A stretch of DNA of 26,477 nucleotides from an uncultured archaeon. GTDB taxonomy: Archaea > Asgardarchaeota > Thorarchaeia > Thorarchaeales > Thorarchaeaceae. Each line of letters opens with the position of its first letter. Position 1 is the stretch's first letter. A model generated the notes under the pieces. That model had not been told where the DNA came from. It saw nothing but the letters and a program-made list of their open reading frames with translations, and did no database searches. The stretch covers positions 190,335-216,811 of the forward strand of contig CAYWJO010000002.1 of the NCBI GenBank assembly GCA_964458565.1. The letters are read 5' to 3'. Position numbers and translations under genes: made by a program. Positions 1 to 22,840 of the stretch are shown here, one piece after another.

Positions 1-769
1 TGAAAAAATGGCACTTGATTGGATAAATACCGGAATCTCTATGGTACAACATACTGGTCATCCATTAATATTACAGATATATGGACGAACTGAGAAAGCC
101 ATTGAACGTCATATCCTTTGGGTTTCTGAGAACTTCGATGGACCCTTCATGTTTGAGTCAATCAATTCAAAAACTAGGATACGTGGAATAGAGTTGTGTC
201 AAGAGGTAGGTCTCTCAGATCGCGCTATCTTCAACTCAATCAACATCTCTATGAAACCTGAGGAAGAAGTTGCGCTCAGGAACAGTCCACTTGAAACTGC
301 CGTTGTCTTGGGATGGTCTCCAAAGGCAACAAGTCTTGAAGAGCGGATGAATATCATTAAAGAACAAATTTCCGTGGCAAATCAAATTGGTGTGAAGAAT
401 GTAATTGTTGATCCTGGGACAATGCCTGTCGGAGCAGGCTACGGTCTTGAACATCGAACACTTCTTGCCATCAAAACAGAACTTGGTCGACCCACATGTC
501 TTGCTCCTCACAATGCACCGTCTGCGTGGAATTTTATCAGGCAATCTGAGTTCAATAATGAGTCAATTCATTTAGCTACTGTCGTAGCGTCAAGCATAGC
601 AGCTCAACTTTTTGCATCAGATTGCATCATGTATGGTTCTATGATTCGTACAAAAGAGGTATTCACCTCGGTGGCTTTGATTGGGAATGCCATATCATCA
701 GCTATTGCAGAAGCAAATCATGTGCTTGGACTTGATAGAGATCTGTTTGATCCTCCAACATTTCAATAG
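1..769 (+). CDS. mtrH: MtrH-family methyltetrahydromethanopterin/folate:corrinoid methyltransferase, paralog 1 (5'-truncated by window edge)
   Basis: Motifs EVGLSDRAIFNSIN, VIVDPGT and PHNAPSAW are colinear with the 1477..2412 protein. The frame is open back to position 2 and the roughly 50 N-terminal residues of the paralog are absent, so the true start is probably upstream of the window. Confidence 0.85.
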   Translation, partial: EKMALDWINTGISMVQHTGHPLILQIYGRTEKAIERHILWVSENFDGPFMFESINSKTRIRGIELCQEVGLSDRAIFNSINISMKPEEEVALRNSPLETAVVLGWSPKATSLEERMNIIKEQISVANQIGVKNVIVDPGTMPVGAGYGLEHRTLLAIKTELGRPTCLAPHNAPSAWNFIRQSEFNNESIHLATVVASSIAAQLFASDCIMYGSMIRTKEVFTSVALIGNAISSAIAEANHVLGLDRDLFDPPTFQ

Positions 770-777
770 GTGATATA

Positions 778-1473
778 ATGAATCGTACTTCAGATTCTGA
801 ATGGCCTCCTGTATCAGGTGATTTTGTTGTGGGCGACTCTAAGGGGTGTGTTGCTATTTGCACTCTTGGAAAGAGACTTGATGTTGACTGCAATTACGCG
901 ATTATCGGAACATGCAAGACTGAAAACATTGGTATCGAACGAATTATAGTGAATACTATATCCAATGTGTCAATCCGTTTTTTGATATTAGCTGGTCCTG
1001 AAATACCAGGTCATCTCACCGGACAGACACTAAGGTCTCTTTATGAGGGTGGTATTGACTCTGACACGAAACGTATTATTGATGCAAAGGGAGCAATACC
1101 ATATATTGAGAATGTCCCCCTTGAAGCGGTTGAACGCTTTAGGAAACAAGTGACGTTAGTTGATATGCTAAATAATCTCGATGTACAAGAGATTGCACTG
1201 ATGGCTGAGCAGTTGAATCAGAAGAATCCTGGAGCATTTCCTGAACCAGAAATCTGGGTTGAATTCAAAGCTAAGTCCAAACGGAAGAGACCAATAATTA
1301 CTGGGGCGGGTATTGATATTCTTCCGGAGTATGGAGTGACATATAATCCGTTGACATCACTAGTATCAGGTAAGGCTGCTGGTGCTGTGGTTTCAATTCA
1401 TCCATCAAGTGTTGTAATTACAGTATCTTCAGGTGACGAAGAAGGTCACCTCATTACAGGAAAGGAGTTGTAA
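778..1473 (+). CDS. mtrA: MtrA-family corrinoid protein lacking the C-terminal TM anchor, with a soluble C-terminal extension
   Basis: WPPVSGDFVVGD, VAICTLG, GTCKTENIGIERIIVNTISN.SIRFLILAG, GHLTGQ (His cobalt ligand) and GAIPYIEN. GGTGA RBS just upstream. Confidence 0.92.
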   Translation: MNRTSDSEWPPVSGDFVVGDSKGCVAICTLGKRLDVDCNYAIIGTCKTENIGIERIIVNTISNVSIRFLILAGPEIPGHLTGQTLRSLYEGGIDSDTKRIIDAKGAIPYIENVPLEAVERFRKQVTLVDMLNNLDVQEIALMAEQLNQKNPGAFPEPEIWVEFKAKSKRKRPIITGAGIDILPEYGVTYNPLTSLVSGKAAGAVVSIHPSSVVITVSSGDEEGHLITGKEL

Positions 1474-1476
1474 ATA

Positions 1477-2412
1477 GTGTTCATCTTTGAGAAAGAACAA
1501 CAGATTTATGATATTGCTGGCGTCAAAATCGGGGGAAATCCCGGCGAAAACCCAACTGTACTAGCTGGTACAATATTCTACGATGGGGATAAGATTGTAA
1601 CTGATGCAGAGTACGGTGAGTTCGATAAGAATCAAGCTGAATTGATGATTGGTAAACAAAATGAGCTCTCATCAACTACTGGGAACCCAGCATTAGTTCA
1701 AATTTATGCAGGGACATCGGATGCTCTCATAAAGTATATAGACTTTGTAACAGATTGCACAGAATCTTCATTTCTAATCGATTCTACAACGCCTAGCGTT
1801 CGCCTCAATGGATTACGATATTGTGAGGAAGTCGGATTACTGGATCGAGCTATCTATAATTCTATTAATCTCTCCATAAGTGAAGAAGAAATCCAGGGAT
1901 TGACTGAAATTCAACACGATTGCGCGATAGTTCTTGCTTTCAATCCTCGAGACCCATCAGTTGCAGGTAGGAGAGCTGTACTCGAAGATGGCGGTGGACA
2001 AATTACCAAAGGTCTCTTGACGCTCTGTGAAGATATTGGTGTTACAAAACCGCTAATTGATACTGCAATCACTGCTATGGGAGCGGGTGCTGGTGCAGCA
2101 GCCGCCTTCACCTTCGTTGCAAAGACCATCTATGGCTTTCCAACTGGCTCCGGTGTTCACAATGCTCCTTCATCATGGCCCTGGCTTAGGGATATGAAGA
2201 AGAAAAACAAGGACATCTTTAGAACATGTGATATCGCATCAAACCTCATAGTGCAGACTTTAGGAGCTGACTATGTTCTTTATGGCCCCATTAAAAATGC
2301 GGAACTTGTTTTTCCAGCAGTAGCAATGGGTGATATATTTGCAGCTGAATCACTCTCCTTAGAAATGGGAATTGAACCTGTAGAAACACATCCTTATAGA
2401 AAACTTCTCTGA
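1477..2412 (+). CDS. mtrH: MtrH-family methyltransferase, paralog 2 (full length)
   Basis: Canonical MtrH N-terminus MFIFEKEQ...GVKIGGNPGENPTVLAGTIFY, then FLIDST, RAIYNSIN, GSGVHNAPSSW, GADYVLYGPI. GTG start. Confidence 0.93.
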   Translation: MFIFEKEQQIYDIAGVKIGGNPGENPTVLAGTIFYDGDKIVTDAEYGEFDKNQAELMIGKQNELSSTTGNPALVQIYAGTSDALIKYIDFVTDCTESSFLIDSTTPSVRLNGLRYCEEVGLLDRAIYNSINLSISEEEIQGLTEIQHDCAIVLAFNPRDPSVAGRRAVLEDGGGQITKGLLTLCEDIGVTKPLIDTAITAMGAGAGAAAAFTFVAKTIYGFPTGSGVHNAPSSWPWLRDMKKKNKDIFRTCDIASNLIVQTLGADYVLYGPIKNAELVFPAVAMGDIFAAESLSLEMGIEPVETHPYRKLL

Positions 2413-2415
2413 GGT

Positions 2416-3828
2416 ATGAAAATAGTGGTCGCATCCGGACGCGTTATTCGCCCTAAGCATATCGGACCTAGTTCTCTAAGATATGGACCATTCTATACAG
2501 TTGCTTCTGTGGAGTTGGGAAATAGCACAACCAAATGTATCCTGATGTCTACAAATCTTGAAAGCGCTGAGGTCTTTGAAATCGAAAAGGAAGTTAGGAT
2601 GACCCGAGATATTCGACCACCTAAAGATAATGAGGTCGTATTTGGAAAAACATTGGTAGGTGTCCCTCTCAGTAAAGAAGCAGTTTCAGAATTTATTAAT
2701 GACATAATAACAACAGTACTGAAGAAAGCACGAATACGAATCGAGTCAGATCTTCATTTTGTTGTTAGGTCTACAGGTGTTAACGCGAGTTTTGCATCAC
2801 CATCAGAGGTTGGTGCAATTGTAAAATCTCTTGCAGATGGATGCTTAGATGCTGGGATTCCACCAAGAAAAATGACTGCATCGTTAGCAGTAGAAAATCT
2901 ACCTCCTGGACTTCGGGATTATAGCTGGTTGAAGAAAGTCTATTTTGATGGTGCAGTTGCAGCATCTCTACCTCCTGCAGAAACTGATGTTGTGGCAAAT
3001 GAAATGGAAGGCGAACTTGTGACAGCTGGTTTGAAGGGGGCTGCAAAGAGTACAAATATTGATTTTAGAAATCCGGTCATGACACTTGATTTTGGAACAA
3101 CACTCGCAGGCAGGATCACTGACAACTCGTTTCCATATGCTAAAACTGTTGGTTCTTTCGCTGGTTTGGCAGGTGCTATTCCTGATGCGATAGTTCAAGG
3201 CACTAGTCTTGTGGAAGGTGACACAGGATGCACTTTAGATTTAGCAACCTCTCGACCTCGTTCAAATGATTCTATTGACGAACACTGGGTTGAAAGAGCA
3301 CATCGATTGATACGAGTAGGTATAGTTCCGAAAGGTTCGAATCGATTCGGTACGGTTCCGGTTAATACCAAGGCTGCAGAAAATTCCGGACTTGTGCTAA
3401 TCGGTGTAGATGTTGGTGATAATGGCTCCGAATTGGGTGGGTTGAAAAAACTCGGATCCGACCTCGAAGCAACTAGTAGGATTGATGAAATACTCATAAT
3501 AATTGACAATATTCAAGCCCATTTAGTACAACGCATCGTATCAGTAGCGTCATCAGCGAATCTTATTCTCCCGGAAACATCACTAGGATTAACCGGTCGT
3601 GCAATTACCACCGGTACTAAGCCTCGAATAATTTCCAAGAAACTACGGATTAACGACAAATCATGGACTGACACTCATCACCTCTTATTTGTTGAAGATG
3701 GTTTAGCTATTGGGGCTGCTGTTGCCGCAAGATGCATGAACTCACTTGGCACTCGTACAAATCCAATGGGTGGCCGGAAAGGTGATGGATGTATAATGGG
3801 TGCAAGAATGAATCTTCAGAAGAAGTAG
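2416..3828 (+). CDS. 'Methanogenesis marker 14' family protein (DUF2114-like); ASKHA-type ATPase motifs
   Basis: YTVASVELGNSTTKCIL, LHFVVRSTGV, VANEMEGELVTAG, LDFGTTLAGRIT, GLAGAIPDAI, VEDGLAIGAAVAARCMNSLGT..NPMGG..G.GCI are the motifs I recall for this family. Confidence 0.8.
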   Translation: MKIVVASGRVIRPKHIGPSSLRYGPFYTVASVELGNSTTKCILMSTNLESAEVFEIEKEVRMTRDIRPPKDNEVVFGKTLVGVPLSKEAVSEFINDIITTVLKKARIRIESDLHFVVRSTGVNASFASPSEVGAIVKSLADGCLDAGIPPRKMTASLAVENLPPGLRDYSWLKKVYFDGAVAASLPPAETDVVANEMEGELVTAGLKGAAKSTNIDFRNPVMTLDFGTTLAGRITDNSFPYAKTVGSFAGLAGAIPDAIVQGTSLVEGDTGCTLDLATSRPRSNDSIDEHWVERAHRLIRVGIVPKGSNRFGTVPVNTKAAENSGLVLIGVDVGDNGSELGGLKKLGSDLEATSRIDEILIIIDNIQAHLVQRIVSVASSANLILPETSLGLTGRAITTGTKPRIISKKLRINDKSWTDTHHLLFVEDGLAIGAAVAARCMNSLGTRTNPMGGRKGDGCIMGARMNLQKK

Positions 3829-11333: not shown

Positions 11334-12023
11334 ATGTGGTCGAGATATTGTTCAGCGTTTCTTCTTCTGTTGCTTGTAGGCTCGATGATGCTTCCATCAG
11401 TTGCTGCAGATTCTGTTTTACGATATGGTGTGTCTGAAGGAGACCGTATCTATTATCATTGGACTGGAAATCGTACCGTAAGTTCGTATACTGTGGAGTT
11501 GAATCATGTAGTGTACATTGATTTTACATACGGAGTACCTGAAAATATATCGATGCCATATCAACTAACGCATTACCTTCTATTTTTTGAGAATGGAACT
11601 CCCATAGGTCTCAATGTTCCGGGATGGCCATACAATAGTACTAGACCTGGAACGGAAATCGTTGAACCAATGCATACTCCCCTTGCTCCTTTACCGATTG
11701 GAAATTGGACTTACACAAGCCAGTTCTATGAAGATCCAACGGTCAATATAATAGAAGATATGCTCATCTGGACTATAATCTCTAATACACCTACTCGTTC
11801 TTTTCAACGAACTTTTACTAAATCTGATGGTATTGTCAGTCATCTGATTTACCAGCTGAATTATTCTGAATACTATTCATATTATTATGACCTAGTACGA
11901 ATTATTGATTGGGCTCCTGTGTTAGTGATTGGTTTTGTAGCCAGCGTTGGTGTTATTGCCGTAGTTATAGTACTTCTCCGAAGACGAACAAAAGCTGTGG
12001 ATATATCCCACAAAGAACTTTAA
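11334..12023 (+). CDS. Hypothetical exported protein with C-terminal membrane anchor
   Basis: Hydrophobic signal peptide ending PSVAA; YGVSEGDRIYY start of the mature domain; C-terminal TM helix followed by RRR. Confidence 0.7.
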   Translation: MWSRYCSAFLLLLLVGSMMLPSVAADSVLRYGVSEGDRIYYHWTGNRTVSSYTVELNHVVYIDFTYGVPENISMPYQLTHYLLFFENGTPIGLNVPGWPYNSTRPGTEIVEPMHTPLAPLPIGNWTYTSQFYEDPTVNIIEDMLIWTIISNTPTRSFQRTFTKSDGIVSHLIYQLNYSEYYSYYYDLVRIIDWAPVLVIGFVASVGVIAVVIVLLRRRTKAVDISHKEL

Positions 12024-12087: not shown

Positions 12088-12666
12088 ATGGTGCTAAAAA
12101 TGGTCACAGCACTCTTTAAAGTAGTCTTGATGGGTGACGGAAGTGTCGGGAAAACTAGCCTGAGACGTGTGTATATGGGCGAGGGGTTCAAGGCTAATTA
12201 CATGATCACCATCGGAGCTGACTTCGCCGTTAAGAAGATGCAGCTTGCGGGAGGCCACGATGTGAGTATTCAGATCTGGGATCTCGCAGGTCAGGAGCAC
12301 TTCAAGAGTGTCCGCTCTACATTCTATAGAGGCGCTCAGGGCGCTCTTGCAGTTTATTCTACAGTGGAACGAACATCATTTGATAATATGTGGAACTGGA
12401 TTGAGGAATGCTGGACCAATGCTATGAAGAAGATTCCAATCGTTCTGATTGCAAACAAAATTGATTTGCGTGATCAGTTCAAGGATAATCCAGTCATGCA
12501 ACAGACCATAGTCACAACAGAAGAGGGCCAAGCGCTTGCTGATAAAATTGCAGCTCAGGGTGTTCATGCTTCATTCTTGGAGACATCTGCTAAGACTGGA
12601 CATAATGCCGAGGCAGCTTTTCTTGAGCTTGCAATTAAGATTCTTGAAACTGGTGGATTGAACTAG
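12088..12666 (+). CDS. Rab-like small GTPase (Ras superfamily)
   Basis: G1 GDGSVGKTS, switch I Y..TIGADF, G3 IWDLAGQE, FYRGA, G4 NKID, G5 ETSAK; no C-terminal prenylation cysteines. Confidence 0.93.
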   Translation: MVLKMVTALFKVVLMGDGSVGKTSLRRVYMGEGFKANYMITIGADFAVKKMQLAGGHDVSIQIWDLAGQEHFKSVRSTFYRGAQGALAVYSTVERTSFDNMWNWIEECWTNAMKKIPIVLIANKIDLRDQFKDNPVMQQTIVTTEEGQALADKIAAQGVHASFLETSAKTGHNAEAAFLELAIKILETGGLN

Positions 12667-12683
12667 TTCTCCTCCCTTCAAGG

Positions 12684-12962
12684 GTGGACTCCATGAATCC
12701 AAGAAATTCAGAGCATGGATTGTTTTTCCAAGTAAGTAAAATCATTTTTACCATTGGACTGGCTCTAATTACATCTACGCTCTTTATTGTAATTGGTGTG
12801 GCTCTTCTTAGTATTGTGACGCATTCATTTGAAATTACTCTCTATCTGAATTTACTACTAACAATACAGGACACTGGAATTGTCATCACCCTGATTGGAG
12901 GCGCAGGATTGATAGTTGTTAGTTTACATGAACGGTTCTCAAAGAAACAATTAGAATCATAA
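12684..12962 (+). CDS. Small two-TM membrane protein
   Basis: Two long hydrophobic segments; starts 17 nt after the GTPase stop; overlaps the convergent gene by 6 nt. Confidence 0.55.
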   Translation: MDSMNPRNSEHGLFFQVSKIIFTIGLALITSTLFIVIGVALLSIVTHSFEITLYLNLLLTIQDTGIVITLIGGAGLIVVSLHERFSKKQLES

Positions 12963-14141
12963 CTCTCCAAGAAGACGCAAAGTCATTTCATATAACTCGC
13001 TCGCAGCAGTGTGTAGTATCTCGGGATTATCCGAGTAAACGTCCATCCTTACTTTGGACACCTTCTCCTTCGAGTCTCCAACTAACAGAATCGAGGCGAC
13101 AATATCCAATTTTGTGAATTGCCCCTTTCCAATCCCGTAAATGGAACCCATGAATGCCTTTGATTTGTCATCTTTTTCTTTATGATAGATGTGTAAATTC
13201 ATAGCCTCAAAGGTTTGCATGAACATCTCATAGAGCTCATTAGGGTCTCTGGTGACTTGATGCTCTCTTCCCCATTGTTTCAGTTTCTTCCTCTTCTTTT
13301 CCGCAGTCTTCTTTGATAATTCAACAGGTGCTATCCAGTCATAGAAAGAACGTACAAAACAATTGCCTGCTTTAGCTGAGACCCGTTCTCCTGAGGGCTC
13401 AGTGAAGGTAACTGATGTGATCATCTCCCCCTCTATGCATTCATTGAATGCTTTGAATGTGAAGCTAACCCTCTTACTCTTAGTGCCTTTAATTTCATCA
13501 ATAACTATCCGCATTTCATCAGGAGAATGAAGACTTTCATTGGGAAATGCAAGGAGACGAACTTCAACATTCGTTATTGTATCCTCTGATTCATTAATCA
13601 CTGTGACTTCAAATTCTATGTTATCTACACCCGCAGAGTAATCATTCTTTATGAATACTGTATCACTAGTCCTCAATGGAATTTCATCATCATGGATTAT
13701 CGCTGCTTCATGATCCAGACCGTTATCTCCAAGGAGATTCGGAACATTTACAGGTGCGTTTTGTATCCAATCAATTGTGAATTCAGCAGCAGCCTTCACT
13801 TTAGGATTTGAATCACTTGTCAACTTCTTCAAATCCTGTTCCTTCAGACTTCCAGCTACAAGTCCTGTCATAACAACTGCAAGGGCTCTCACTGCATCAT
13901 TATCATCAAGTACTGCAATCTCAAGACCATCTAGTGCATCAAATCCGAACTCTCCGAGTCTGCAAGTGGCGATTAATCTCTCTTCGAGCTCTCCTGTGAG
14001 TGATAGGTCTTTGCAGGCTTGCAGCGACTCATATTCTTCAAGTACTTTGTATAGCTTGTATTCTTTAGTACCAAGTATCTGCTTGAAACTACGTTTCAGT
14101 TTCCCGAGCGCATCCGAGCTAGTTTCTTTTGTGTCTGGCAC
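12957..14141 (-). CDS. HEAT-repeat protein with Ig-like sandwich and platform domain (beta-COP/adaptin appendage-like)
   Basis: HEAT-like segments D.NDAVRALAV and DSNPKVKAAA; beta-sandwich FEVTVINESEDTITNVEVRL; D.I.P junction followed by an alpha/beta platform ending KVRMDVYSDNPEILHTAASEL. Confidence 0.62.
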   Translation of the reverse strand: MPDTKETSSDALGKLKRSFKQILGTKEYKLYKVLEEYESLQACKDLSLTGELEERLIATCRLGEFGFDALDGLEIAVLDDNDAVRALAVVMTGLVAGSLKEQDLKKLTSDSNPKVKAAAEFTIDWIQNAPVNVPNLLGDNGLDHEAAIIHDDEIPLRTSDTVFIKNDYSAGVDNIEFEVTVINESEDTITNVEVRLLAFPNESLHSPDEMRIVIDEIKGTKSKRVSFTFKAFNECIEGEMITSVTFTEPSGERVSAKAGNCFVRSFYDWIAPVELSKKTAEKKRKKLKQWGREHQVTRDPNELYEMFMQTFEAMNLHIYHKEKDDKSKAFMGSIYGIGKGQFTKLDIVASILLVGDSKEKVSKVRMDVYSDNPEILHTAASELYEMTLRLLGEL

Positions 14142-14204
14142 TCTGAGCCCCCTATATTCTTCGTTTTCTTCATCGTTTTAATACTTATGCTGCTCAATCT
14201 GCGA

Positions 14205-14235
14205 ACTCTCTATTCATAAGCTTTTTAGCCGTGAT
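14205..14235. promoter_or_regulatory. Possible overlapping divergent BRE/TATA promoters for the appendage-like and WD40 genes
   Basis: TTCATAAGCTTTTTAG in the 126-nt divergent gap reads as AAAAAG-CTTATGAA on the minus strand and AAG-CTTTTTAG on the plus strand. Confidence 0.3.
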
Positions 14236-14267
14236 TTTGGAGGCCACAAGAGTAACCAACATAGCTA

Positions 14268-15401
14268 GTGATTTCAATGGCTCAGAGAGAACTCTCCTTA
14301 TTCCTAAATCCCGTTGTACTGAAACCAGCCGCTGAACACGGATCCGAAATCACGCGTAGGTTAGCTATGAACAAAGTTGGTAGAATGATAGCTGCAGCAA
14401 TGCAGGATAAGTCAATTCGTCTTTACGATGTAAGAAATTGCGAAGAGATGCAAAGACTCCAAGACAACTTCCTCTGTACCTCTATAGCATTCAGCCCCAA
14501 GGGTGATATTATTGCATCCGGTGGTGTTGATCGTGTCATAAAACTCTGGGATATAAAATCAGGTTCACTTCTAGGCACTCTTGAGGGTCATACATATCCT
14601 GTTCTATCTCTCGCATTCTCCCCTGATGGTGATCGACTAGTATCATCCAGCGGAGATACCACACTCATTGTATGGGACCTAGAGAAACAACAGAGTCTTC
14701 ATCAGATGAAAGGTCACAAGCTCTATGTCGTATCTGCGGATTGGTCACCAGTTGAAGATCTTATTATCTCTGGAGGAATCGATGCGATGATTGGTGTCTG
14801 GAACCCATCATCAGGAGAATGTCTTGCACTACTCGAAGAACACAGGACCGCAGTTCAAACAGTTCGATTCACTCCTGATGGACAGAATTTTGCCTCGGGT
14901 TCCTCTGATATGACGATAAATCTGTGGAATACCGAAGGTGGTTTACCTACAGCTTTCAAGACCTTAAAGGGACATACTGCTGAGGTGAGGGCTCTATCTT
15001 ATAGTCACGATGGAAAATACATTGTTTCAGGTTCTGGGCAGAAAGAAATCTTTGTTTGGTCTACAGATGACTACGAAATCAAAGGTGAGGGTATTACTAC
15101 TGGTGAAATTGATGGTGCTGAATTTCTACCTGACCAACTTGCTTTTGTTTCTGCAGATGGTTCGGGAACCATCATTCGCTGGGAGATTCAAGAACTCTCA
15201 GCAATGCTTGAACCTTTTGAAAAATTCTTGGAAGAAATCCAAAATGACCCTGAACTTACACGAAAGGCTGAGCATATTCAAAAGTTCGAATATATTCAGA
15301 CACAATACAGCGACGCTACTCTCAGGGATAAGCGAGTGTTCTATATTATGTGGCAATGCAAGAAAGCTCTAGGTCTTCTAAAGGGAAAAGTCGTCCGATA
15401 G
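14268..15401 (+). CDS. WD40 beta-propeller protein (about 7 blades) with short helical C-terminal domain
   Basis: Repeated GH...V..(L/V)AFSP.G..(L/I)xSGx.D..I.(L/V)W(D/N) units; the last ~65 residues are predicted helical. Confidence 0.93.
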   Translation: MISMAQRELSLFLNPVVLKPAAEHGSEITRRLAMNKVGRMIAAAMQDKSIRLYDVRNCEEMQRLQDNFLCTSIAFSPKGDIIASGGVDRVIKLWDIKSGSLLGTLEGHTYPVLSLAFSPDGDRLVSSSGDTTLIVWDLEKQQSLHQMKGHKLYVVSADWSPVEDLIISGGIDAMIGVWNPSSGECLALLEEHRTAVQTVRFTPDGQNFASGSSDMTINLWNTEGGLPTAFKTLKGHTAEVRALSYSHDGKYIVSGSGQKEIFVWSTDDYEIKGEGITTGEIDGAEFLPDQLAFVSADGSGTIIRWEIQELSAMLEPFEKFLEEIQNDPELTRKAEHIQKFEYIQTQYSDATLRDKRVFYIMWQCKKALGLLKGKVVR

Positions 15402-15935
15402 CTACTGGCTCTTCTTACTTGACTCAATCATGACTCTGCAAAGGGCGGCATAAGCTTCTTCAACATTCAGACCTGTTAGAGCACTAGATTCAACATAGAG
15501 GTAATCATACTGCTCTGCATATTCCTTTCCTTCCTTTTCTGACACCACTCTACTTTCAATGAGGTCAACTTTGTTGGCTACAACAACCATTGGGACGTCT
15601 CTCCCGGAATTTTTGTTTGCTTCCTCTCTCCATCTGTCTATGTTCATGAATGTCCTCTTTCTCGTGACATCATAGACCAAGAGACCTCCCCTAGCGCCTC
15701 TATAGAATCCTGCTCTGACAACTTCGAACCTCTCTTGACCAGCAAGATCCCAAACCTGCAGCACAACATTAGTGTCAATGTCTGGAAGTTCAATCTTCTT
15801 GATGGCGAAATCAGAACCAATAGTCCGTTTATAGTCTGCTTCAAAATAGTCTTGTGTGAATCGTAGAGTTAGTGCTGTCTTTCCAACTGCACCATCTCCG
15901 AGCATAACTATCTTGAATCTATATTCTGCGGACAT
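15402..15935 (-). CDS. Rab-like small GTPase
   Basis: G1 GDGAVGKT, Y..TIGSDF, LQVWDLAGQERF, FYRGARG.LLVYDVT, NKVD, ESSA; no prenylation motif. Confidence 0.94.
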   Translation of the reverse strand: MSAEYRFKIVMLGDGAVGKTALTLRFTQDYFEADYKRTIGSDFAIKKIELPDIDTNVVLQVWDLAGQERFEVVRAGFYRGARGGLLVYDVTRKRTFMNIDRWREEANKNSGRDVPMVVVANKVDLIESRVVSEKEGKEYAEQYDYLYVESSALTGLNVEEAYAALCRVMIESSKKSQ

Positions 15936-16125
15936 TGAAACACTTCCAAACTAATGGGCTGATGGAGGTAAATCGATTATTCCATCCATATTTCATGAAT
16001 CAGCGTACCTTTTGAAACTTATTCTCTACAACTGTATAAGTATATAATTGAGATACTGCATTGCTGATACTATCATTTAATAGGAAATGCGCATTTCCAA
16101 TCATTGGAAGAATGGAGTGAAACAA

Positions 16126-16512
16126 ATGGAACGACCCGACTATCATGCGTTACCCGAGTTACTTGAACAGATGAATAAAGAGGGCGGGTATCTGGCTTCA
16201 ATAATAGCGCGTGAAGATGGACTTCTTGTGGCGTCAGCCGTTTCACCAACCACAAATGGCGATGTTGTTGCTGCTATGTCAGGAATTATTGCATCCACTG
16301 CAGATCGAATGCGAAAAGAACTAAGTCTTGGTATCATTAGGGACATTACCATCCGATGCTCAGAGGGGAATGCAGTCTTCAAGATGATAGAATCCGGAAA
16401 AACTGAGTCATTCATTCTAGCAGCACTCATACCCCGTAGAATTCGATACCATCTTCGTCCACTTGGTAAAACCGCAACGAAGATTTCACGTCTTTTTGGT
16501 TATAAACGCTAA
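16126..16512 (+). CDS. Roadblock/LC7 (MglB-like) protein
   Basis: LLEQM...GG.LASIIAREDGLLVAS…VVAAMSG…A.RM.KEL.LG…ITIR...G pattern. The likely start is ATG 16126 after GGAGTGA (the track starts at 16087). Confidence 0.85.
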   Translation: MERPDYHALPELLEQMNKEGGYLASIIAREDGLLVASAVSPTTNGDVVAAMSGIIASTADRMRKELSLGIIRDITIRCSEGNAVFKMIESGKTESFILAALIPRRIRYHLRPLGKTATKISRLFGYKR

Positions 16513-16588: not shown

Positions 16589-16924
16589 TTGGACGAAGAG
16601 AAGGAATCCATAGAGGAGTCTGATATCGATAATGAATCAGATCCAATTGAGATAACCTTCTTCAAGTCTGACACATGTGCTTTCTGTCCACAAGCTGAAG
16701 AGATAATCCGTGACATAATTGACGATTTTGAAACGGATTTATTCAAGCTGAACATCATAAATGTTTCAGAGAATCCAGAAGCAGCTGAGGAATTCGGTGT
16801 CTTCGCTCTACCGACAACGATGATTGGTGGAATGTCAATTACCGGAATTCCAGAAACTGAGATGCTTATGAAGATGATAATCGGGTCCAGGATATCTAAA
16901 AAGAGGGAATCACGGGATGAGTGA
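16589..16924 (+). CDS. Thioredoxin-fold protein with CxxC (CAFC), KaiB-like in sequence and context
   Basis: F.S.TCAFCP, INVSENPEAAEEFGVFALPT (cis-Pro loop), ITGIP; acidic N-terminal tail; overlaps the next gene by 8 nt. Confidence 0.82.
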   Translation: MDEEKESIEESDIDNESDPIEITFFKSDTCAFCPQAEEIIRDIIDDFETDLFKLNIINVSENPEAAEEFGVFALPTTMIGGMSITGIPETEMLMKMIIGSRISKKRESRDE

Positions 16925-17663
16925 ATACAATATTGAGCGTGTAAAGACAGGAATTCCGGGTCTAGATGACCTTATTGAAGGTGGGTTTCCAAAAGGAGAT
17001 ACTATTCTAATTGCTGGTAAAGCAGGAACTGGAAAAAGTATCCTGGCAACACAGTTTCTTTACAACGGTGCCACTCAATACAACGAATCTGGTGTATTAG
17101 TGACTTTAGAGGAATCACCACGTTTGATTAAACGTAACATGCTCAGATTTGGTATGGACTTGGAAGAACTTCAGAGAAAGAATATGCTAGCCATTGTCGA
17201 TCTCTCTCCCTCGAAAGGAGGTTCGCCTGTCACGATTGGTGAATATCCCAGTTTTGATCTCTCCGGACTTGAAGCAATAATACTCAATCATGCTCGAAAA
17301 CTCAATGCAACACGAATTGTACTAGACACCCTTTCAATCATGGCCTACAAGTTCAGAAGTCGTGATATCCTCCGAGAGGAATTCTTCAAGCTCTGTGCCA
17401 ACATCACTCGTGAAGGATGCACACTTCTTCTTACAAGTGAAATCCCTGCACAAGAATCAGGTCTTGGAGTATTTGATATTGAAGCATTCTTAGCTTCAGG
17501 TGTCATCGTTCTCTACAATGAGAAGATAAGCGAAACTTCAAGGTCTCGGAGCATTGAAGTACTCAAACTGAGAGGGTCAAAACATAGTTCAAGAATTCAC
17601 TCAATGCGAATAACTGATGAAGGTATACGGGTATGGCCTGGTGAGATTAGCCCCGGTCACTAA
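16917..17663 (+). CDS. Single-domain KaiC-like (RAD55/RecA-superfamily) ATPase, CI-like
   Basis: RVKTGIPGLDDLIEGGFP, Walker A GKAGTGKS, catalytic LEE, Walker B IVLDTLS, LLTSE and R.IEVLKLRGSKH. Confidence 0.92.
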   Translation: MSEYNIERVKTGIPGLDDLIEGGFPKGDTILIAGKAGTGKSILATQFLYNGATQYNESGVLVTLEESPRLIKRNMLRFGMDLEELQRKNMLAIVDLSPSKGGSPVTIGEYPSFDLSGLEAIILNHARKLNATRIVLDTLSIMAYKFRSRDILREEFFKLCANITREGCTLLLTSEIPAQESGLGVFDIEAFLASGVIVLYNEKISETSRSRSIEVLKLRGSKHSSRIHSMRITDEGIRVWPGEISPGH

Positions 17664-17696: not shown

Positions 17697-18389
17697 TTGG
17701 AGCCAAGTGTAATGGTACCCACGAAAATTCAACCAACGATAGGCGACCTTGTGAAGTTTGGTCAACTTACACAAGTTTCTTACATGCTAGTTGGTCCTCT
17801 TGGTTCCGGGAAAACCACATACGGGGAGGCTTTCATAGGTGAAGGTATTGAATTGGGTTTTCCTGGTGTCTTTGTAACAACCGATGTTTCACCACGTGTC
17901 ATTCGAAATGATATGAGCCGGCATGGATGGCCTGTGGATGAATACGAGCAAGAAGGAAAATTAGTTTTCATTGACGGTTACTCTGAACGAATGGGTGCTC
18001 CTAGGGCAGGAATGGCAAGGACGCTCTCAAAGGTCGATGACATAAGTGAACTTGGAATTGTATTGTCCGAGGTTCTTGAAAAATTAGTAGTTGCACGAGT
18101 TGTGATAGATAGTCTCTCTACGCTGATACTGCATTCTACTCCCGCCGCAATGCCAAGAGCTGTACAAAGGCTTAGTGGACGTGTTACACAGTCTTCTCAT
18201 AGTATAATGTATATCTTGGAGGAAGGAGTGCATGAAGAAACGACATATGCCACATTTTCATACCTTGCCGATGCTGTACTTAGATTCAAAGTTGATGATA
18301 CCGGTGACTACCCTATACATAAGGTTAGAATGGAACGAATGAGAGGAACTGAAACATCTCGTGTCTGGCATGATTTCGTACTAAACTAA
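17697..18389 (+). CDS. Second single-domain KaiC-like ATPase, degenerate
   Basis: Walker A GPLGSGKT; VTTDVSP in place of the EE motif; FIDGYS; Walker B VVIDSLS; SYLADAVL; RMRG. Confidence 0.85.
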   Translation: MEPSVMVPTKIQPTIGDLVKFGQLTQVSYMLVGPLGSGKTTYGEAFIGEGIELGFPGVFVTTDVSPRVIRNDMSRHGWPVDEYEQEGKLVFIDGYSERMGAPRAGMARTLSKVDDISELGIVLSEVLEKLVVARVVIDSLSTLILHSTPAAMPRAVQRLSGRVTQSSHSIMYILEEGVHEETTYATFSYLADAVLRFKVDDTGDYPIHKVRMERMRGTETSRVWHDFVLN

Positions 18390-18461: not shown

Positions 18462-20759
18462 TTGGAATCATTTATGGTTGTCACATTGCGGGAGATTCTT
18501 TGCGGTTCTCTCTCTCTTGATGACGGTCTCTCCGCAATTCAAAATGCTGCAATAACCCGATCTGAAGAGCCTGATATAGTATTCGAAATTGCCCGTGCCA
18601 TTGAAGAGATTCTCCTCAGACGCCCCACAATCGCGAATGCTAAATTAACAGAATTAACAGTACGCCTATCGTTCAGAAAAGATCGGACCATACCTGAGAT
18701 GATTATGCTCTTTGATACAAGGTTTACGTGTAGCCATAGACGCGCTGAAACCGAATTTCTTGCTGATATGGATGCAATCCCCCAACTATTGGATATTCTT
18801 GGTGAGCTCTCACAGGCCATTAATTCCGCATTAAAACTCAACCTTCGACCTTTACTTCAATTTTTAGCAGAGGAAACCCTCACAACTCTAAATTCCATTG
18901 TTGATAGAGGGCATAAGGGATCAATAGATTTGGCATTACATGAAATACATTATTTAGCTGATATCCTGATAGATACAGGTTTCTTTGAAGGCGCTGAATT
19001 ATTATTTGAAAGAGTACTCTCAATTGCTCAAGAGATGGATATGGTTGATTTTGTATTTGAAGTATCGCTCGGATATGCTTCTGTATTGACTGAGTTGCGG
19101 AGGTATGAACAAGCTCGTTCTCTTTTGAAGCGTTTAGAATCTGAATTATCACCTAATCAGAATACCAGAATGGCAGCTCTTAAACTTCTACTCGCAATCA
19201 ATGAAACAAGAGATGATGACGCTCCCTTTCAAACTGCTCGTGATTATAGTGATGAAGCGATTAACTTGCATGAAAAGGCAGTGATGGCGGGTTCCTTACG
19301 GTTGGAAGATCTAGGTCTTGCTCATCTGGTTATTGGCTCATGCATTCTTTACAATGGATGGAGAGAAGCAGTTCCACAAGCTGTTGAGCGATTGACCTCC
19401 GGTTTGCGAGTAATTGAGGGGATTAATGACCCCAGTCTGGAAACATCTCTTCATTTGGTCAAATGTCTCTCGGGACTAGGTTTTGCTCATGGGCTCATGG
19501 CAGATCATGACAGCATTACTCTAAGCTTGGAGTATTTAGAACGAGCTGAATCTATCTTGAACACACTCTCCGAGAATGGGCAAACATACGAGTTTGAAAT
19601 CTCATGTGTAGAGAATGCAATTGGTTGGATTTGTCTTTCATCAGATTCAAATGAACATTGGTCTCGAGGTTGTGAGGGTTTTGATAGGGCTATTTCCATT
19701 CGGAAAAATCTGTTGGAACAAGGATCAATATCTCCATTAGCTTTGTTTGGAAGTCAACTTGGACTTGCACTTTCGAAATTACGTATGAATCGCTCTTCTG
19801 ATGATGCGGTATATAATGAGATTCGAAATACTATCGCGCAATACATCCCACTATTTCACACAGATGAACGTGCATTCGTAGATGTCGCTATTGCAATCTA
19901 TGATGTTGTGTGGTTGACATATCGACATAATGAGAAAATCACTCCTCGTCTTCTGCGTCTCCTCGAAGATGTCGACACTATGTTAATGGATGCAAGAGTC
20001 GAAGACGAATCTGGTTTCATAGATAGTGTTTCTCTTGTCGTCCCTTATATGAGCTCAAGCTGGTCAACTCTATACAACCGATCTGACCGTATAGCAAAAT
20101 CAAAAACAACTCTAAGTGACATATCCGCACTCCTTAGAGGGTTGGCTACATCAAAGTTGAATGTTGATTCATCAAGTCTCGAAGCTGGAATACGAGTTAT
20201 TCCACCCGTTGATACAGCCGCTAGAGGTATAGATCCACTACTTGCACAATATTGGGAAGGTCAGACAAAACTTGCAGAAACAGTGAAAAACTTCTATGAA
20301 AATAAGAACTACCCAGAACTTGCTGAAGGTTTGTATAGATCTTCACAAATGTTAACTAAGGTGTCCGATATCTCTACAGATTTCATGGAATCCGTAGAAT
20401 TCATCCAAGCTACAGTTATGTCTCTCTCCTCAGTTCTATTTCGATTTGCTAGAGCATTGAAGGAATTTTATGATATTGATTTTTCTGAGTTACCTGGTGA
20501 TGAGCGAATATTGAGCGATGATGATGATCGTTATGATTTCATTCTATCTGAAGACTGGCTCAATTTGATGAAGATAACTGAGTCATATCTGCAAATGGTT
20601 GAGCAGTCCGAAACCATCCAAGCACAGCCCTATCTTAATGCTGTATTCTCTAACATCTCTCGAGCCCTTCGAATGATGGATCGCATATCAATGGTAGATA
20701 GAAGAGTATTAGCCCGATTGGGCGTTGAGATGAATCGTCGGTATTATCTTAGAGCTTGA
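18462..20759 (+). CDS. Large all-helical TPR/alpha-solenoid-like protein
   Basis: TPR-like segments (LADILIDTGFFEGAELLFERVL, YASVLTELRRYEQARSLL, LSGLGFAHG…SLEYLERA); Leu/Ala-rich, with no catalytic motif seen. Confidence 0.62.
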   Translation: MESFMVVTLREILCGSLSLDDGLSAIQNAAITRSEEPDIVFEIARAIEEILLRRPTIANAKLTELTVRLSFRKDRTIPEMIMLFDTRFTCSHRRAETEFLADMDAIPQLLDILGELSQAINSALKLNLRPLLQFLAEETLTTLNSIVDRGHKGSIDLALHEIHYLADILIDTGFFEGAELLFERVLSIAQEMDMVDFVFEVSLGYASVLTELRRYEQARSLLKRLESELSPNQNTRMAALKLLLAINETRDDDAPFQTARDYSDEAINLHEKAVMAGSLRLEDLGLAHLVIGSCILYNGWREAVPQAVERLTSGLRVIEGINDPSLETSLHLVKCLSGLGFAHGLMADHDSITLSLEYLERAESILNTLSENGQTYEFEISCVENAIGWICLSSDSNEHWSRGCEGFDRAISIRKNLLEQGSISPLALFGSQLGLALSKLRMNRSSDDAVYNEIRNTIAQYIPLFHTDERAFVDVAIAIYDVVWLTYRHNEKITPRLLRLLEDVDTMLMDARVEDESGFIDSVSLVVPYMSSSWSTLYNRSDRIAKSKTTLSDISALLRGLATSKLNVDSSSLEAGIRVIPPVDTAARGIDPLLAQYWEGQTKLAETVKNFYENKNYPELAEGLYRSSQMLTKVSDISTDFMESVEFIQATVMSLSSVLFRFARALKEFYDIDFSELPGDERILSDDDDRYDFILSEDWLNLMKITESYLQMVEQSETIQAQPYLNAVFSNISRALRMMDRISMVDRRVLARLGVEMNRRYYLRA

Positions 20760-20770
20760 TGTAAAATACT

Positions 20771-22840
20771 CTAGTTCGATGCTTTTCTATAGACTCCCGG
20801 TTTTGCTCCCCATGTTGCCCAACCTGATGTTTCTGTCCTCATCTCGTTAGCCAACCCGAATGACTCTCTAACAGGAATTTCAGCATGAATTTTGTATAGT
20901 GTCCGCTCTGAGTCTATTTCAAGTACATGTCCCTTTCTCTTAGCTAGTATCGTTGTCAAGACTCCAACATATTCCTCCGGACTCGAGATTTCAAGATTCA
21001 GCCACGGTTCATACAATTCCGGCTTTCCTGAGAGAATACTATCTCGTGCTGTCTGTATAAATGGCTGAGTTATATCCCTCCATGATGTTTCTGGTTCATT
21101 ACTAACAATCTGCGCCTCGGTGATTATCAACATTACACCTCGCATTCGTTCTCCCGAAACAGGTCCATATCTCATAATATATCTGAAGCCTTCAGATATC
21201 CATTCGAATTCGGTCTGAGTTTTTGCTATCTTCCCTGTAGCATCAAAGAGGAAACATCCTGCTGCAGGTACTGAATCTATAATCTTGTTATCATCAATTT
21301 CAGTATGATTCTCTGAAATGACTGCCTGAATGACGAAATGGCTTCCATCAGACTGAGCTGATTTCATGGGTTTTCCATCCACTTTCATTTGTTCTTTCAA
21401 GACAACCATTGGCTTTCCAAGCTTCACACCCACACCTAATCTGGAAATCTTTTCAATACTGATTTCTATATGTAGCTCCCCTGCACCAGATAGCAGTAAC
21501 TCTCCTGTTTCAGGGTTGATCTCAAAATATAGGGCTGGATCTGTTTCAACGTATTCTGATATTGGTACTTCTATCTTTGATAGATCTGTTAATCTCTGAG
21601 GTTCGAGTGTATAAGTTACAACGGGCTCTGTTGGATATTGCAGCTCACTGATTGGAATGAAGCTCTCTTTGTAATCTGTAAGAGTATCCCCAATTGCTAT
21701 ATCTTTCACTCCTGATATAAATGCCAAATTACCAGCTGGTACTTCTGTAAGTGCGACTCGTGTTTTCGACATTGAGATTCCTATTTGTAGAGTTTTATCT
21801 TCCCTTCCAGTCCTAAGGTTGCGTAATGACTTCCCCCGAATCAATGTACCTGACAAAATTCTGGCACCCGCTACGATTCCCGTGTGTCTATCATGTTGGA
21901 CATCCACTACCTGAAGTATGCAAGGACCATTTGGATCACAGTTTCTCAGGGCTTGTCCTACCTCTGATTCAATATCGCCTTTCCATATTGAAGGCATCCG
22001 ATAGTGCTGAGCATCTCTTGGGTTAGGTATTGATACAACAATAGAATCCAGAACTGCCTTAGCAATCGGATAGCGCTCAGATAGTATCTTTTCTTTCCCC
22101 TGCAAGTATAAATCAACTATTTCCACGAGAATTTCACGAAATGCCTTCGCTAGTTCTTTAGGTTCTATACTACCAGCTCTAGTTTGAAGATTATCAAGTC
22201 CAAATCCCCATTTATCGAGCGCAGAACCAATCGTTAAAGACCGCTTATGAAAAGAGACCTCCCATTTCTCATGGATTTCTTCATCAAGGTATTTTCCAAG
22301 CATCCCGTTGAATTCCAACACGATTCTGTTTATTTCTGTAGCAATTTTCTTTGCATCCATTCTTTTCTCTTTGATAAGACGATCAACTTTGTTAATTACT
22401 AACAACGGGTGTACAAATTCCTTCATAGCTTGACGAGTGACTGTTTCTGTTTGAACCATAATTCCCTCAATCGCATCAACAACTATTATAGCTCCATCTG
22501 TCAATCTTAGTCCCCGAGTTACATGAGATGAGAAATCTATATGCCCTGGAGTATCAACTAGGTGAATTAGATAATCCCTTTCTTCAAATCGATGAATAAG
22601 TGAAATATTTGAAGCTTTGATGGTGATACCTCTGTCCTGCTCTATCATATCATAATCGAGGAGTCGTGCAGTAGCTGCTATTTCCTTTGATAATAAGCCC
22701 GACTCCGCTATAAGCGAATCAGTTAAGGTGGTCTTTCCATGATCGATGTGGGCGATTACTGTGCAATTTCTGATAAGATCTATTTCTTTCACAATCTTGG
22801 TTATCCGTTCATTTACGAACTTTTTATACAAATGCGACAC
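20771..22840 (-). CDS. Translation elongation factor EF-2 paralog lacking the diphthamide HRG loop
   Basis: AHIDHGKTT, RGITI, DTPGHIDF, NKVD, GAGELHIE, EIPVRESFG…MRTETSG. The domain IV loop reads SNEPETSWRDI rather than H..HRG, and the C-terminus is short. Confidence 0.9.
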   Translation of the reverse strand: MSHLYKKFVNERITKIVKEIDLIRNCTVIAHIDHGKTTLTDSLIAESGLLSKEIAATARLLDYDMIEQDRGITIKASNISLIHRFEERDYLIHLVDTPGHIDFSSHVTRGLRLTDGAIIVVDAIEGIMVQTETVTRQAMKEFVHPLLVINKVDRLIKEKRMDAKKIATEINRIVLEFNGMLGKYLDEEIHEKWEVSFHKRSLTIGSALDKWGFGLDNLQTRAGSIEPKELAKAFREILVEIVDLYLQGKEKILSERYPIAKAVLDSIVVSIPNPRDAQHYRMPSIWKGDIESEVGQALRNCDPNGPCILQVVDVQHDRHTGIVAGARILSGTLIRGKSLRNLRTGREDKTLQIGISMSKTRVALTEVPAGNLAFISGVKDIAIGDTLTDYKESFIPISELQYPTEPVVTYTLEPQRLTDLSKIEVPISEYVETDPALYFEINPETGELLLSGAGELHIEISIEKISRLGVGVKLGKPMVVLKEQMKVDGKPMKSAQSDGSHFVIQAVISENHTEIDDNKIIDSVPAAGCFLFDATGKIAKTQTEFEWISEGFRYIMRYGPVSGERMRGVMLIITEAQIVSNEPETSWRDITQPFIQTARDSILSGKPELYEPWLNLEISSPEEYVGVLTTILAKRKGHVLEIDSERTLYKIHAEIPVRESFGLANEMRTETSGWATWGAKPGVYRKASN

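Follow-up and report, generated by a model that had tools for sequence, protein, structure and literature searches.

A Thor-Rab ortholog, a roadblock-KaiB-KaiC operon and a miniature adaptin-like protein at one locus of a Thorarchaeaceae genome

A window of 26,477 nt (the whole stretch of DNA that was analyzed; G000:C2:190335-216811), taken from a 3.7-Mb, 93% complete metagenome-assembled genome of an archaeon of the family Thorarchaeaceae (G000), was found to encode an ortholog of the crystallized GTPase Thor-Rab, here called RasB, next to a Roadblock/LC7 protein, a KaiB-like protein and two KaiC-like ATPases. The RasB-roadblock-KaiB-KaiC-KaiC series is the most deeply conserved part of the locus and looks like a signaling switch. 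A second Rab-like GTPase (RasA), a stand-alone WD40 propeller and a protein termed mini-adaptin, in which a HEAT stalk is joined through a hinge to an appendage, or ear, are encoded beside it. Our preferred reading, which we hold with about even confidence, is that of a Rab/roadblock switch coupled to KaiB/KaiC, with the WD40 protein and mini-adaptin as optional and mutually independent scaffolds or effectors. The sequencing runs found to contain the window were all of salt-marsh metagenome DNA, with no RNA run among them.

Several of the components are already known, namely the Asgard ear domain (Makarova 2024; Liu 2021; Eme 2023) and Thor-Rab and the Asgard roadblock proteins (Tran 2024). 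Full-text literature searches returned no report of a HEAT-hinge-ear fusion, of its place beside Thor-Rab or of a Rab-roadblock-KaiB-KaiC module. The fusion is apparently undescribed, since Eme et al. (2023; PMC10307638) described Asgard AP domains as "not fused to each other".

RasB, the roadblock protein and the Kai genes

The RasB (15402..15935, minus strand, 177 aa) and RasA (12088..12666, plus strand, 192 aa) proteins were both recognized by the Pfam Ras model, with E values of 6e-53 and 6e-46, respectively. RasB residues 1-174 aligned to PDB entry 7EZB with ~72% identity (E 1e-82), and on this sequence comparison RasB is the ortholog of the crystallized Thor-Rab. Thor-Rab is a protein of Candidatus Thorarchaeota SMTZ1-45 (KXH73347.1; PDB 7EZB, 7EZD and 7EZE) which has a structure closest to that of Rab1B, exhibits a Rab-like intrinsic GTPase activity and has no prenylatable cysteines (Tran et al. 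2024, PMC10933270). Its Arg37 is located at the position of the intrinsic arginine finger of MglA, and Thor-Rab paralogs differ in this respect (PMC10933270). RasB has the same G motifs as Thor-Rab, a switch-I Arg37, the catalytic Gln (Gln67) and a short basic tail that, as in Thor-Rab, lacks a C-terminal Cys. An ortholog alignment indicated that the switch-I Arg, the catalytic Gln and all of the G motifs were kept in RasB and in nearly all of its orthologs. With both GTPases of the locus taken together, the PDB matches that followed Thor-Rab included Rab11, Rab1, Rab8 and Ypt1.

RasA has canonical G motifs (GDGSVGKT, DLAGQ, NKID and ETSAK), and its best PDB match was also Thor-Rab (6e-38), followed by Rab1, Rab8 and Rab11. 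Compared to Thor-Rab, RasA carries two short inserts and is devoid of the switch-I Arg and of a C-terminal Cys. The RasA orthologs were 74 to 88% identical across genera. Both GTPases thus combine complete G1-G5 motifs with a closest similarity to Rabs, as members of the Rab family do. A C-terminal Cys motif for geranylgeranylation was absent from RasA, RasB and every aligned RasB ortholog, and neither a lipid anchor nor an amphipathic N-terminus was found on either Rab.

The roadblock gene (16087..16512, plus strand, 141 aa) diverges from RasB, and the 151-nt intergenic region between them contains a TATA-like box. Its product matched Pfam Robl_LC7 (PF03259) with an E value of 1.8e-5 and 24.8 bits (cut-off, 23), and matches to solved structures were weak (E 0.005) and comprised the Asgard roadblocks 7yh1 and 7f8m and LAMTOR2. 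A roadblock domain is therefore present, and a link of this protein to a GTPase is suggested by the adjacency of its gene to RasB. Downstream and on the same strand are the KaiB-like gene (16589..16924, 111 aa), the 3' end of which shares 8 nt with KaiC1 (16917-17663), then KaiC2 (17697-18389) and a gene for a 765-aa TPR protein (18462..20759), which is the last gene of this operon in the family of the window. From the roadblock to the TPR gene, all of the gaps are of 76 nt or less, apart from the 8-nt overlap. The KaiB-like protein has a thioredoxin fold and matched Pfam Thioredoxin_3 and KaiB, with the NCBIfam model of the MJ0307-family thioredoxin below its cut-off. KaiC1 and KaiC2 are single-domain KaiC-like ATPases (Pfam KaiC, 3e-68 and 2e-30, respectively), and their orthologs within the family were 74 to 85% and 68 to 80% identical. 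An AlphaFold2 (AF2) model of the TPR protein (predicted local distance difference test [pLDDT] score, 86.1) exhibited an all-alpha, continuous superhelix of 34 helices, and a fold search with this model detected generic TPR scaffolds only (Ctr9, Ski3 and IFT-A). The TPR orthologs were 44 to 53% identical.

Two groups of known systems resemble this part of the locus. As in MglA/MglB and Rag/Ragulator, a roadblock gene lies beside a small GTPase gene, and the RasB Arg is at the position of MglA Arg53; unlike MglA, RasB is Rab/Ras-like and distant in both sequence and structure (PMC10933270), and the roadblock protein matches solved roadblocks weakly. As in archaeal KaiB/KaiC modules, a gene for a thioredoxin-fold KaiB-like protein overlaps the first of two genes for KaiC-family ATPases, whereas the single-domain KaiC proteins, the absence of KaiA, the leading position of roadblock in the operon and the pairing with a Rab set the locus apart from these modules. 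Makarova et al. reportedly linked KaiC to KaiB-like thioredoxins in 2017. In MK-D1, GTPase genes generally do not share an operon with genes for roadblock, longin or TRAPPC3 proteins, and the gene context of Thor-Rab itself was not described (Tran et al. 2024, PMC10933270). Unlike the MK-D1 genes, RasB has a conserved roadblock/KaiBC neighborhood in addition to WD40 and mini-adaptin.

Mini-adaptin, the ear-domain family and the propeller

Mini-adaptin (12957..14141, minus strand) is a 394-aa protein whose sequence alone produced nothing above threshold in Pfam or NCBIfam. When orthologs were aligned, all 25 matched Pfam HEAT_2, and an AF2 model built on this alignment had a mean pLDDT of 83.6. 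The model contains helices at residues 9-128, with ~4 to 5 HEAT repeats at residues ~37-130, a disordered hinge at 134-151 (pLDDT <50, in poorly conserved columns of the alignment) and a bipartite appendage composed of a beta-sandwich (158-272) and an alpha/beta platform (277-390). Residues W290, R292 and H294, which are located in the platform, were invariant and are a lead to a possible ligand site of the ear. Mini-adaptin orthologs were only 32 to 38% identical between genera, with the closest relative (L026) having 68% identity.

Searches of the PDB with Foldseek placed gamma-COP first (5a1u_E, 4e-12; 9qpq_H, 1.6e-11), and the top ranks also contained the AP2 alpha ear (2.5e-10), the beta2 ear (6.6e-10) and crystal structures of the gamma-COP ear. 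VIA, which is independent of Foldseek, aligned the AP2 alpha ear (1w80_A) over 215 residues across both subdomains with a Z score of 16.1 and a root mean square deviation of 4.0, and also detected the beta2 ear (Z 13.8) and BBS9 (Z 12.0 over 186 residues). An ESM Atlas shape search detected beta-COP clusters with TM scores of 0.45 to 0.47, and the gamma-COP clusters found in the Atlas feature search, with values of 0.75 to 0.76, are at the level of leads. Sequence identity between the mini-adaptin ear and solved ears was 9 to 14%. Coatomer_b_Cpla, the model of the beta-COP appendage platform, was weakly matched by 8 of the 25 orthologs (best E, 0.0016), and Adaptin_N (PF01602) was matched by none of them at an E value of ≤1. 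A full-length family profile detected only generic HEAT and alphaRep proteins among PDB sequences, with AP beta trunks at an E of ~0.2. Together, the structural and sequence matches indicated that the initial annotation, which had guessed a HEAT plus appendage protein from the sequence alone, was correct.

Judged by its predicted structure, mini-adaptin follows the plan of an adaptin large subunit in miniature, its stalk having ~100 residues. Like the large subunits of AP and COPI complexes, it has a HEAT solenoid, a flexible hinge between trunk and ear, and a C-terminal sandwich and platform, in the same order. It differs from them in its helical stalk, which is far short of the ~500 to 600 residues of adaptin trunks, in the absence of an Adaptin_N signal and of a nearby mu or sigma gene, in having neighboring GTPases that are Rab-like and not of the Arf type, and in the lack of clathrin and of any membrane-binding feature. 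Domain scans of the window proteins detected no sigma- or mu-type gene. PF01217 (sigma/zeta small chain) had no match in G000, but control genomes were likewise without a match, and the single match to PF01602 in G000 was below threshold and fell in an unrelated 1066-aa open reading frame (ORF) on another contig. A reading of the hinge sequence LLGDN as a clathrin box was rejected, as it does not fit L-phi-x-phi-[DE] and as Asgard archaea are not known to have clathrin.

A profile of the ear alone was used to search 1.84 billion proteins and detected 696 cluster representatives, 163 of them at an E value of ≤1e-30. These proteins ranged from 189 to 2867 aa, the domain was almost always C-terminal, and the named members were from Thorarchaeota and Helarchaeota. 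Of the best 149 matches, 90 carried a hydrophobic, transmembrane-like segment no more than 120 residues ahead of the ear, and 44 had none. The large ear proteins begin with a signal peptide, carry extracellular-type domains (LVIVD/SBBP propellers, TSP3, SBP_bac_5 and NosD/beta-helix) and continue with a Thr/Ser/Pro stalk containing 0 to 1 basic residues, one transmembrane helix, an Arg/Lys cluster (RRR/KR) and then the ear; examples are P0049, P0055, P0057, P0060, P0068, P0074, P0078 and P0088, none of which is encoded in the window. This pattern of stalk, membrane segment and basic cluster indicates that type-I surface proteins of many Thorarchaeota have the ear as their cytoplasmic tail. One GOLD-transmembrane-appendage protein has been reported in a methanogen (Makarova et al. 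2024, 10.1101/2024.02.06.579148); no description of a general surface-protein ear-tail pattern was found in the literature.

In G000 itself, only two genes encode an ear domain; both of their products are soluble, and a membrane-anchored one is absent. The second (L041:2529-4805, on G000:C65) encodes a 758-aa protein that has no Pfam domain and matched only Asgard-specific Atlas clusters; its ~760-aa family has members in nearly all Thorarchaeaceae genomes and in the sister family of the same order. The ear-domain family as a whole appears to work at the membrane, but the same does not follow for mini-adaptin of G000. Published partners of the ear are Vps28-C, Vps23, longin, a UFM1 ligase, a Zn-ribbon and, through a transmembrane linker, GOLD (10.1101/2024.02.06.579148; 10.1101/2020.10.19.343400; PMC10307638). 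Mini-adaptin shares the two-lobed ear with these Asgard and archaeal appendage proteins and, unlike them, has its ear fused through a hinge to HEAT repeats and is encoded beside a Rab.

WD40 (14268..15401, plus strand) forms a divergent pair with mini-adaptin, and a Rab gene abuts each member of the pair. Its product is a propeller of 377 aa from the listed GTG start at 14268 or of 374 aa from the ATG at 14277. The latter is the more likely start, since all orthologs align from residue 4 onward; a T-rich, TATA-like box is present ~45 nt upstream. Pfam WD40 was matched with an E value of 2e-53 over 5 repeats, and only generic propeller families were detected. Propeller and alpha-solenoid are not combined in one polypeptide at this locus: the WD40 protein consists of a propeller only, and the TPR solenoid is encoded separately, six genes away. 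BBS2, BBS7 and BBS9, which consist of a propeller, a GAE sandwich and a platform, resemble the locus in that the mini-adaptin ear aligns to BBS9 and that propeller and ear genes are back to back; unlike in the BBSome, the propeller is a generic WD40, not of the BBS type, and its separate gene can be lost whether or not that of the ear protein is kept. In a Loki-like family (f9), a BBS7/BBS2-like N-terminal propeller and the same ear are fused in single proteins of 587 aa (G210, L045:1598-3358, minus strand) and 606 aa (G246, L046:1208-3025, plus strand).

A small ORF for a membrane protein of 92 aa with two hydrophobic segments, termed the 2-TM ORF (12684..12962, plus strand; possible start at Met4), begins 17 nt downstream of RasA. 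A counterpart was detected in one relative (L025, P0030), in which it is colinear, 26% identical, and has the same segments and the same 6-nt overlap with mini-adaptin. There is no room for this gene in L026 and six other genera, as the RasA and mini-adaptin stops are 14 to 143 nt apart (14 nt in L026). The 2-TM ORF is probably a real but young gene, specific to two lineages, and not part of the core. All of the other genes are real genes, since they are conserved as proteins across genera. ORF calls confirmed the six adjacent ORFs of the initial annotation and both of its junctions, the 6-nt overlap of the convergent 2-TM and mini-adaptin ORFs (12957-12962) and the exact abutment of the convergent WD40 and RasB ORFs (15401/15402). 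Its assignment of two Rab-like GTPases, a WD40, a 2-TM and a roadblock protein was also right, as judged by Pfam and, for the 2-TM protein, by the hydrophobic segments.

Gene order and gene loss among relatives

In order to examine the conservation of the locus, the window proteins were mapped onto orthologous loci of 17 genomes of the Thorarchaeaceae (f1; 86 genomes in 16 genera, g1 to g16) and one genome (G025) of the sister family f2. Searches for mini-adaptin, roadblock and WD40 were run family- or phylum-wide. Three configurations were detected. In the first, found in g1, g4, g6, g10, g13, g16 and part of g3, RasA and mini-adaptin converge, mini-adaptin and WD40 diverge, WD40 and RasB converge, and RasB and roadblock diverge, as in the window. 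The second was observed in g2, g5, g9 and g14 and is implied for g7, g8, g11, g12 and g15 by the positions of WD40 and roadblock; mini-adaptin is missing, and RasA and WD40 are codirectional and followed by convergent RasB and divergent roadblock. The third, in which RasB and mini-adaptin are codirectional and WD40 is missing, was confined to a g3 subclade (G002, G379, G390 and two NCBI contigs). No WD40 ortholog was detected at 1e-60 anywhere in G002, G379 or G390, the genomes of which are 77 to 92% complete. A RasA ortholog with 87% identity accompanies the third configuration and in G379 is separated from the other locus genes by 850 kb.

WD40 was present as a single copy in 68 of the 86 genomes, in all 16 genera and always beside RasB, while full-length mini-adaptin was detected in ~46 genomes and 7 of the 16 genera. 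Thus, 9 genera have WD40 but no mini-adaptin, and the g3 subclade has mini-adaptin but no WD40. In a maximum likelihood tree of concatenated RasB, roadblock, KaiB-like, KaiC1 and KaiC2 sequences (884 columns, rooted on f2), the genera without mini-adaptin fell into two nested clades (SH-aLRT, 100 and 98), although this tree came from a quick search, its outgroup is one long branch and support for its deep nodes was 81 to 91. This nesting indicated at least two losses of an ancestral mini-adaptin gene. Overall, WD40 was lost at least once and mini-adaptin at least twice, independently of each other.

The f2 locus (G025, L036:6466-9319) consists of RasB, roadblock, KaiB-like and two KaiC genes, all codirectional and with short gaps, that between RasB and roadblock being ~30 nt; WD40, mini-adaptin and the TPR gene were absent from this locus. 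RasB and roadblock were adjacent in nearly all f1 genomes and in all genera examined, and the KaiB-like gene followed roadblock at every locus examined. The locus of G003 (L013 and L042, on contigs C24 and C40) is split between RasB and roadblock, with both breakpoints mid-contig, and two congeners keep these genes adjacent. In both rearrangements, those of G379 and G003, RasB stayed with WD40 and/or mini-adaptin. Where WD40 is absent, RasB and mini-adaptin are codirectional neighbors 90 to 130 nt apart.

These patterns have to be read against the surrounding gene order. A collinear block of ~20 kb and at least 20 genes was found in the genera examined, running from DUF2114 through an F420 ligase, a Ni-insertion protein, PolB and orf91 to the locus and then to a right flank of an EF-2 paralog, a hexapeptide transferase and an AsnC-type regulator, and f2 keeps the EF-2 paralog and the transferase beside its locus. 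Family-level synteny is no evidence of function, because unrelated housekeeping genes (PolB, the F420 ligase and the EF-2 paralog) are equally collinear. The conserved neighborhood that the initial annotation proposed to look for in related genomes was therefore present but did not discriminate between explanations. The six genes do not behave as an operon-like unit beyond this background, as WD40, mini-adaptin, RasA and the 2-TM gene were each lost or moved independently. What stands out from the background, in few events, is the tight roadblock-Kai operon, the retention of RasB beside roadblock despite an inversion in f2, the close codirectional Rab-scaffold pairs formed after gene loss and the two rearrangements that spared the association of RasB with WD40 or mini-adaptin.

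Three features of the flanks were also observed. The EF-2/EF-G-family GTPase (20771-22840, 689 aa), the gene of which is convergent with the TPR gene, scored 507 bits against the aEF-2 model, which has a cut-off of 738, and looks like a divergent EF-2 paralog. Upstream of RasA, a 229-aa ORF (11334-12023) encodes a protein that has a signal-like segment at its N-terminus and a transmembrane anchor followed by RRR at its C-terminus, and that contains several N-x-S/T sites and a Tyr-rich stretch; a counterpart with 45% identity is present at the same position upstream of RasA in L025 and was not found in other genera. At positions 1-3828 of the window, tightly spaced MtrH, MtrA, MtrH and DUF2114 ("methanogenesis marker 14") genes are present in what is a non-methanogen Asgard genome, and this arrangement is syntenic in relatives.

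A signaling switch and its alternatives

In the preferred reading of a Rab/roadblock switch coupled to KaiB/KaiC, which draws on MglA/MglB and Rag/Ragulator as analogies, the nucleotide state of RasB would be regulated by the roadblock protein, and the KaiB/KaiC pair may feed a slow ATPase or phosphorylation signal into this regulation. The WD40 protein and mini-adaptin would most likely be optional effectors or adaptors of the Rabs, neither needing the other, and RasA would be a second, very conserved Rab whose link to the locus can be broken. Several points weigh against this reading. The gene identities, the folds, the orthology to Thor-Rab and the presence/absence patterns were observed, whereas we infer every physical interaction and the direction of signaling. 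The Pfam match of the roadblock protein is marginal (24.8 versus 23 bits). In families f12, f21, f7, f6 and f4, tblastn with the Ras and Kai queries of the window detected no Ras or Kai neighbors of roadblock homologs with ~40% identity. Adjacency within f1 is weak evidence, as collinearity extends all the way from DUF2114 to the AsnC-type regulator, and the Rab-roadblock-Kai adjacency could itself be inherited order, since the EF-2 paralog and the transferase also stay adjacent in f2. No experimental precedent for a link between a KaiC-type ATPase and a small GTPase was retrieved from the literature.

The collinearity of the region also underlies the suggestion, which we regard as doubtful, that beyond the roadblock-Kai operon, perhaps with RasB, the RasA, mini-adaptin and WD40 genes are functionally unrelated and have merely been inherited in order. 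The collinearity, in every genus examined, of at least 20 genes whose functions are clearly unrelated is consistent with this suggestion, as are the alternating strands with their own intergenic regions, the divergent evolutionary rates (74 to 88% identity for RasA and 32 to 38% for mini-adaptin) and the loss or movement of each accessory gene without loss of the others. It does not readily account for the tight codirectional pairs, RasB with mini-adaptin and RasA with WD40, that resulted from loss of the intervening gene, nor for two independent rearrangements that never parted RasB from WD40 or mini-adaptin, and four of the six genes come from families that cooperate in eukaryotic GTPase systems. 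It is improbable, in our judgment, that mini-adaptin instead belongs to an ESCRT- or ubiquitin-linked sorting network, with its Rab adjacency due to chance, in the way of other Asgard appendage proteins that are fused to Vps28-C, longin or UFM1 ligase domains. The ear is common to a large Asgard family (the 696 cluster representatives), members of which have been connected with ESCRT loci and with domains of Vps28, Vps23 and UFM1 ligase (10.1101/2024.02.06.579148; 10.1101/2020.10.19.343400), and the Atlas shape search detected an Asgard UFM1-ligase/PCI cluster; however, no ESCRT or ubiquitin-system gene is present in the window, and mini-adaptin has HEAT repeats in place of Vps28-C, steadiness-box or longin domains.

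The initial annotation had proposed that the co-location encodes a minimal GTPase-recruited coat or adaptor complex. The parts and their neighborhood are real, but the parts are individually dispensable and coat-defining features are missing. A minimal proto-coat or cargo adaptor, in which GTP-bound Rabs would recruit mini-adaptin and the WD40 protein to a membrane, possibly through the 2-TM protein, and which would be ancestral to COPI and AP, is in our view improbable. The adaptin-like order of parts, the best structural matches to gamma-COP, beta-COP and AP2 ears and the weak beta-COP platform signal in 8 of the 25 orthologs all favor it, and mini-adaptin diverges from a propeller gene with a Rab abutting each. 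Outside the locus, the BBS7-type propeller-ear fusion in a single Loki-like protein and the use of the ear mostly as a membrane-proximal cytoplasmic tail in other Thorarchaeota point in the same direction. On the other hand, the WD40 protein and mini-adaptin each persist without the other, RasA and the 2-TM gene are unstably linked to the locus, the HEAT stalk has ~100 residues versus ~500 to 600 and no Adaptin_N match, and the window contains no sigma/mu-type gene. The propeller is unfused to a solenoid and matches generic WD40 families only, neither Rab has a lipid anchor or amphipathic N-terminus, and neither of the two ear genes of G000 encodes a membrane-anchored protein. Within the Thorarchaeaceae, synteny cannot serve to argue for a coat, given that collinearity covers the entire region and that each candidate coat part can be lost on its own. 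A more specific idea, to which we give little credence, is that mini-adaptin has survived in archaea as a relative of the lineage of beta/gamma-adaptin and COPI large subunits, with trunk, hinge and ear already joined, acts as an effector of GTP-bound Thor-Rab and, together with the propeller, links membrane proteins, maybe the ear-tailed surface receptors of related Thorarchaeota, to intracellular machinery. If this were true, mini-adaptin would be a minimal GTPase-controlled adaptor that predates eukaryotic coats.

The pieces of coats reported so far were scattered and unfused, and this locus encodes a protein whose HEAT repeats, hinge and ear follow each other as in adaptins. It also offers a small set of soluble proteins for testing, comprising the adaptin-like protein, the propeller, the roadblock regulator and the KaiC module, around a GTPase with a published structure and activity. 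The most stable partnership of Thor-Rab is that with roadblock and KaiB/KaiC, which points to an archaeal-style signaling input into a eukaryote-like GTPase.

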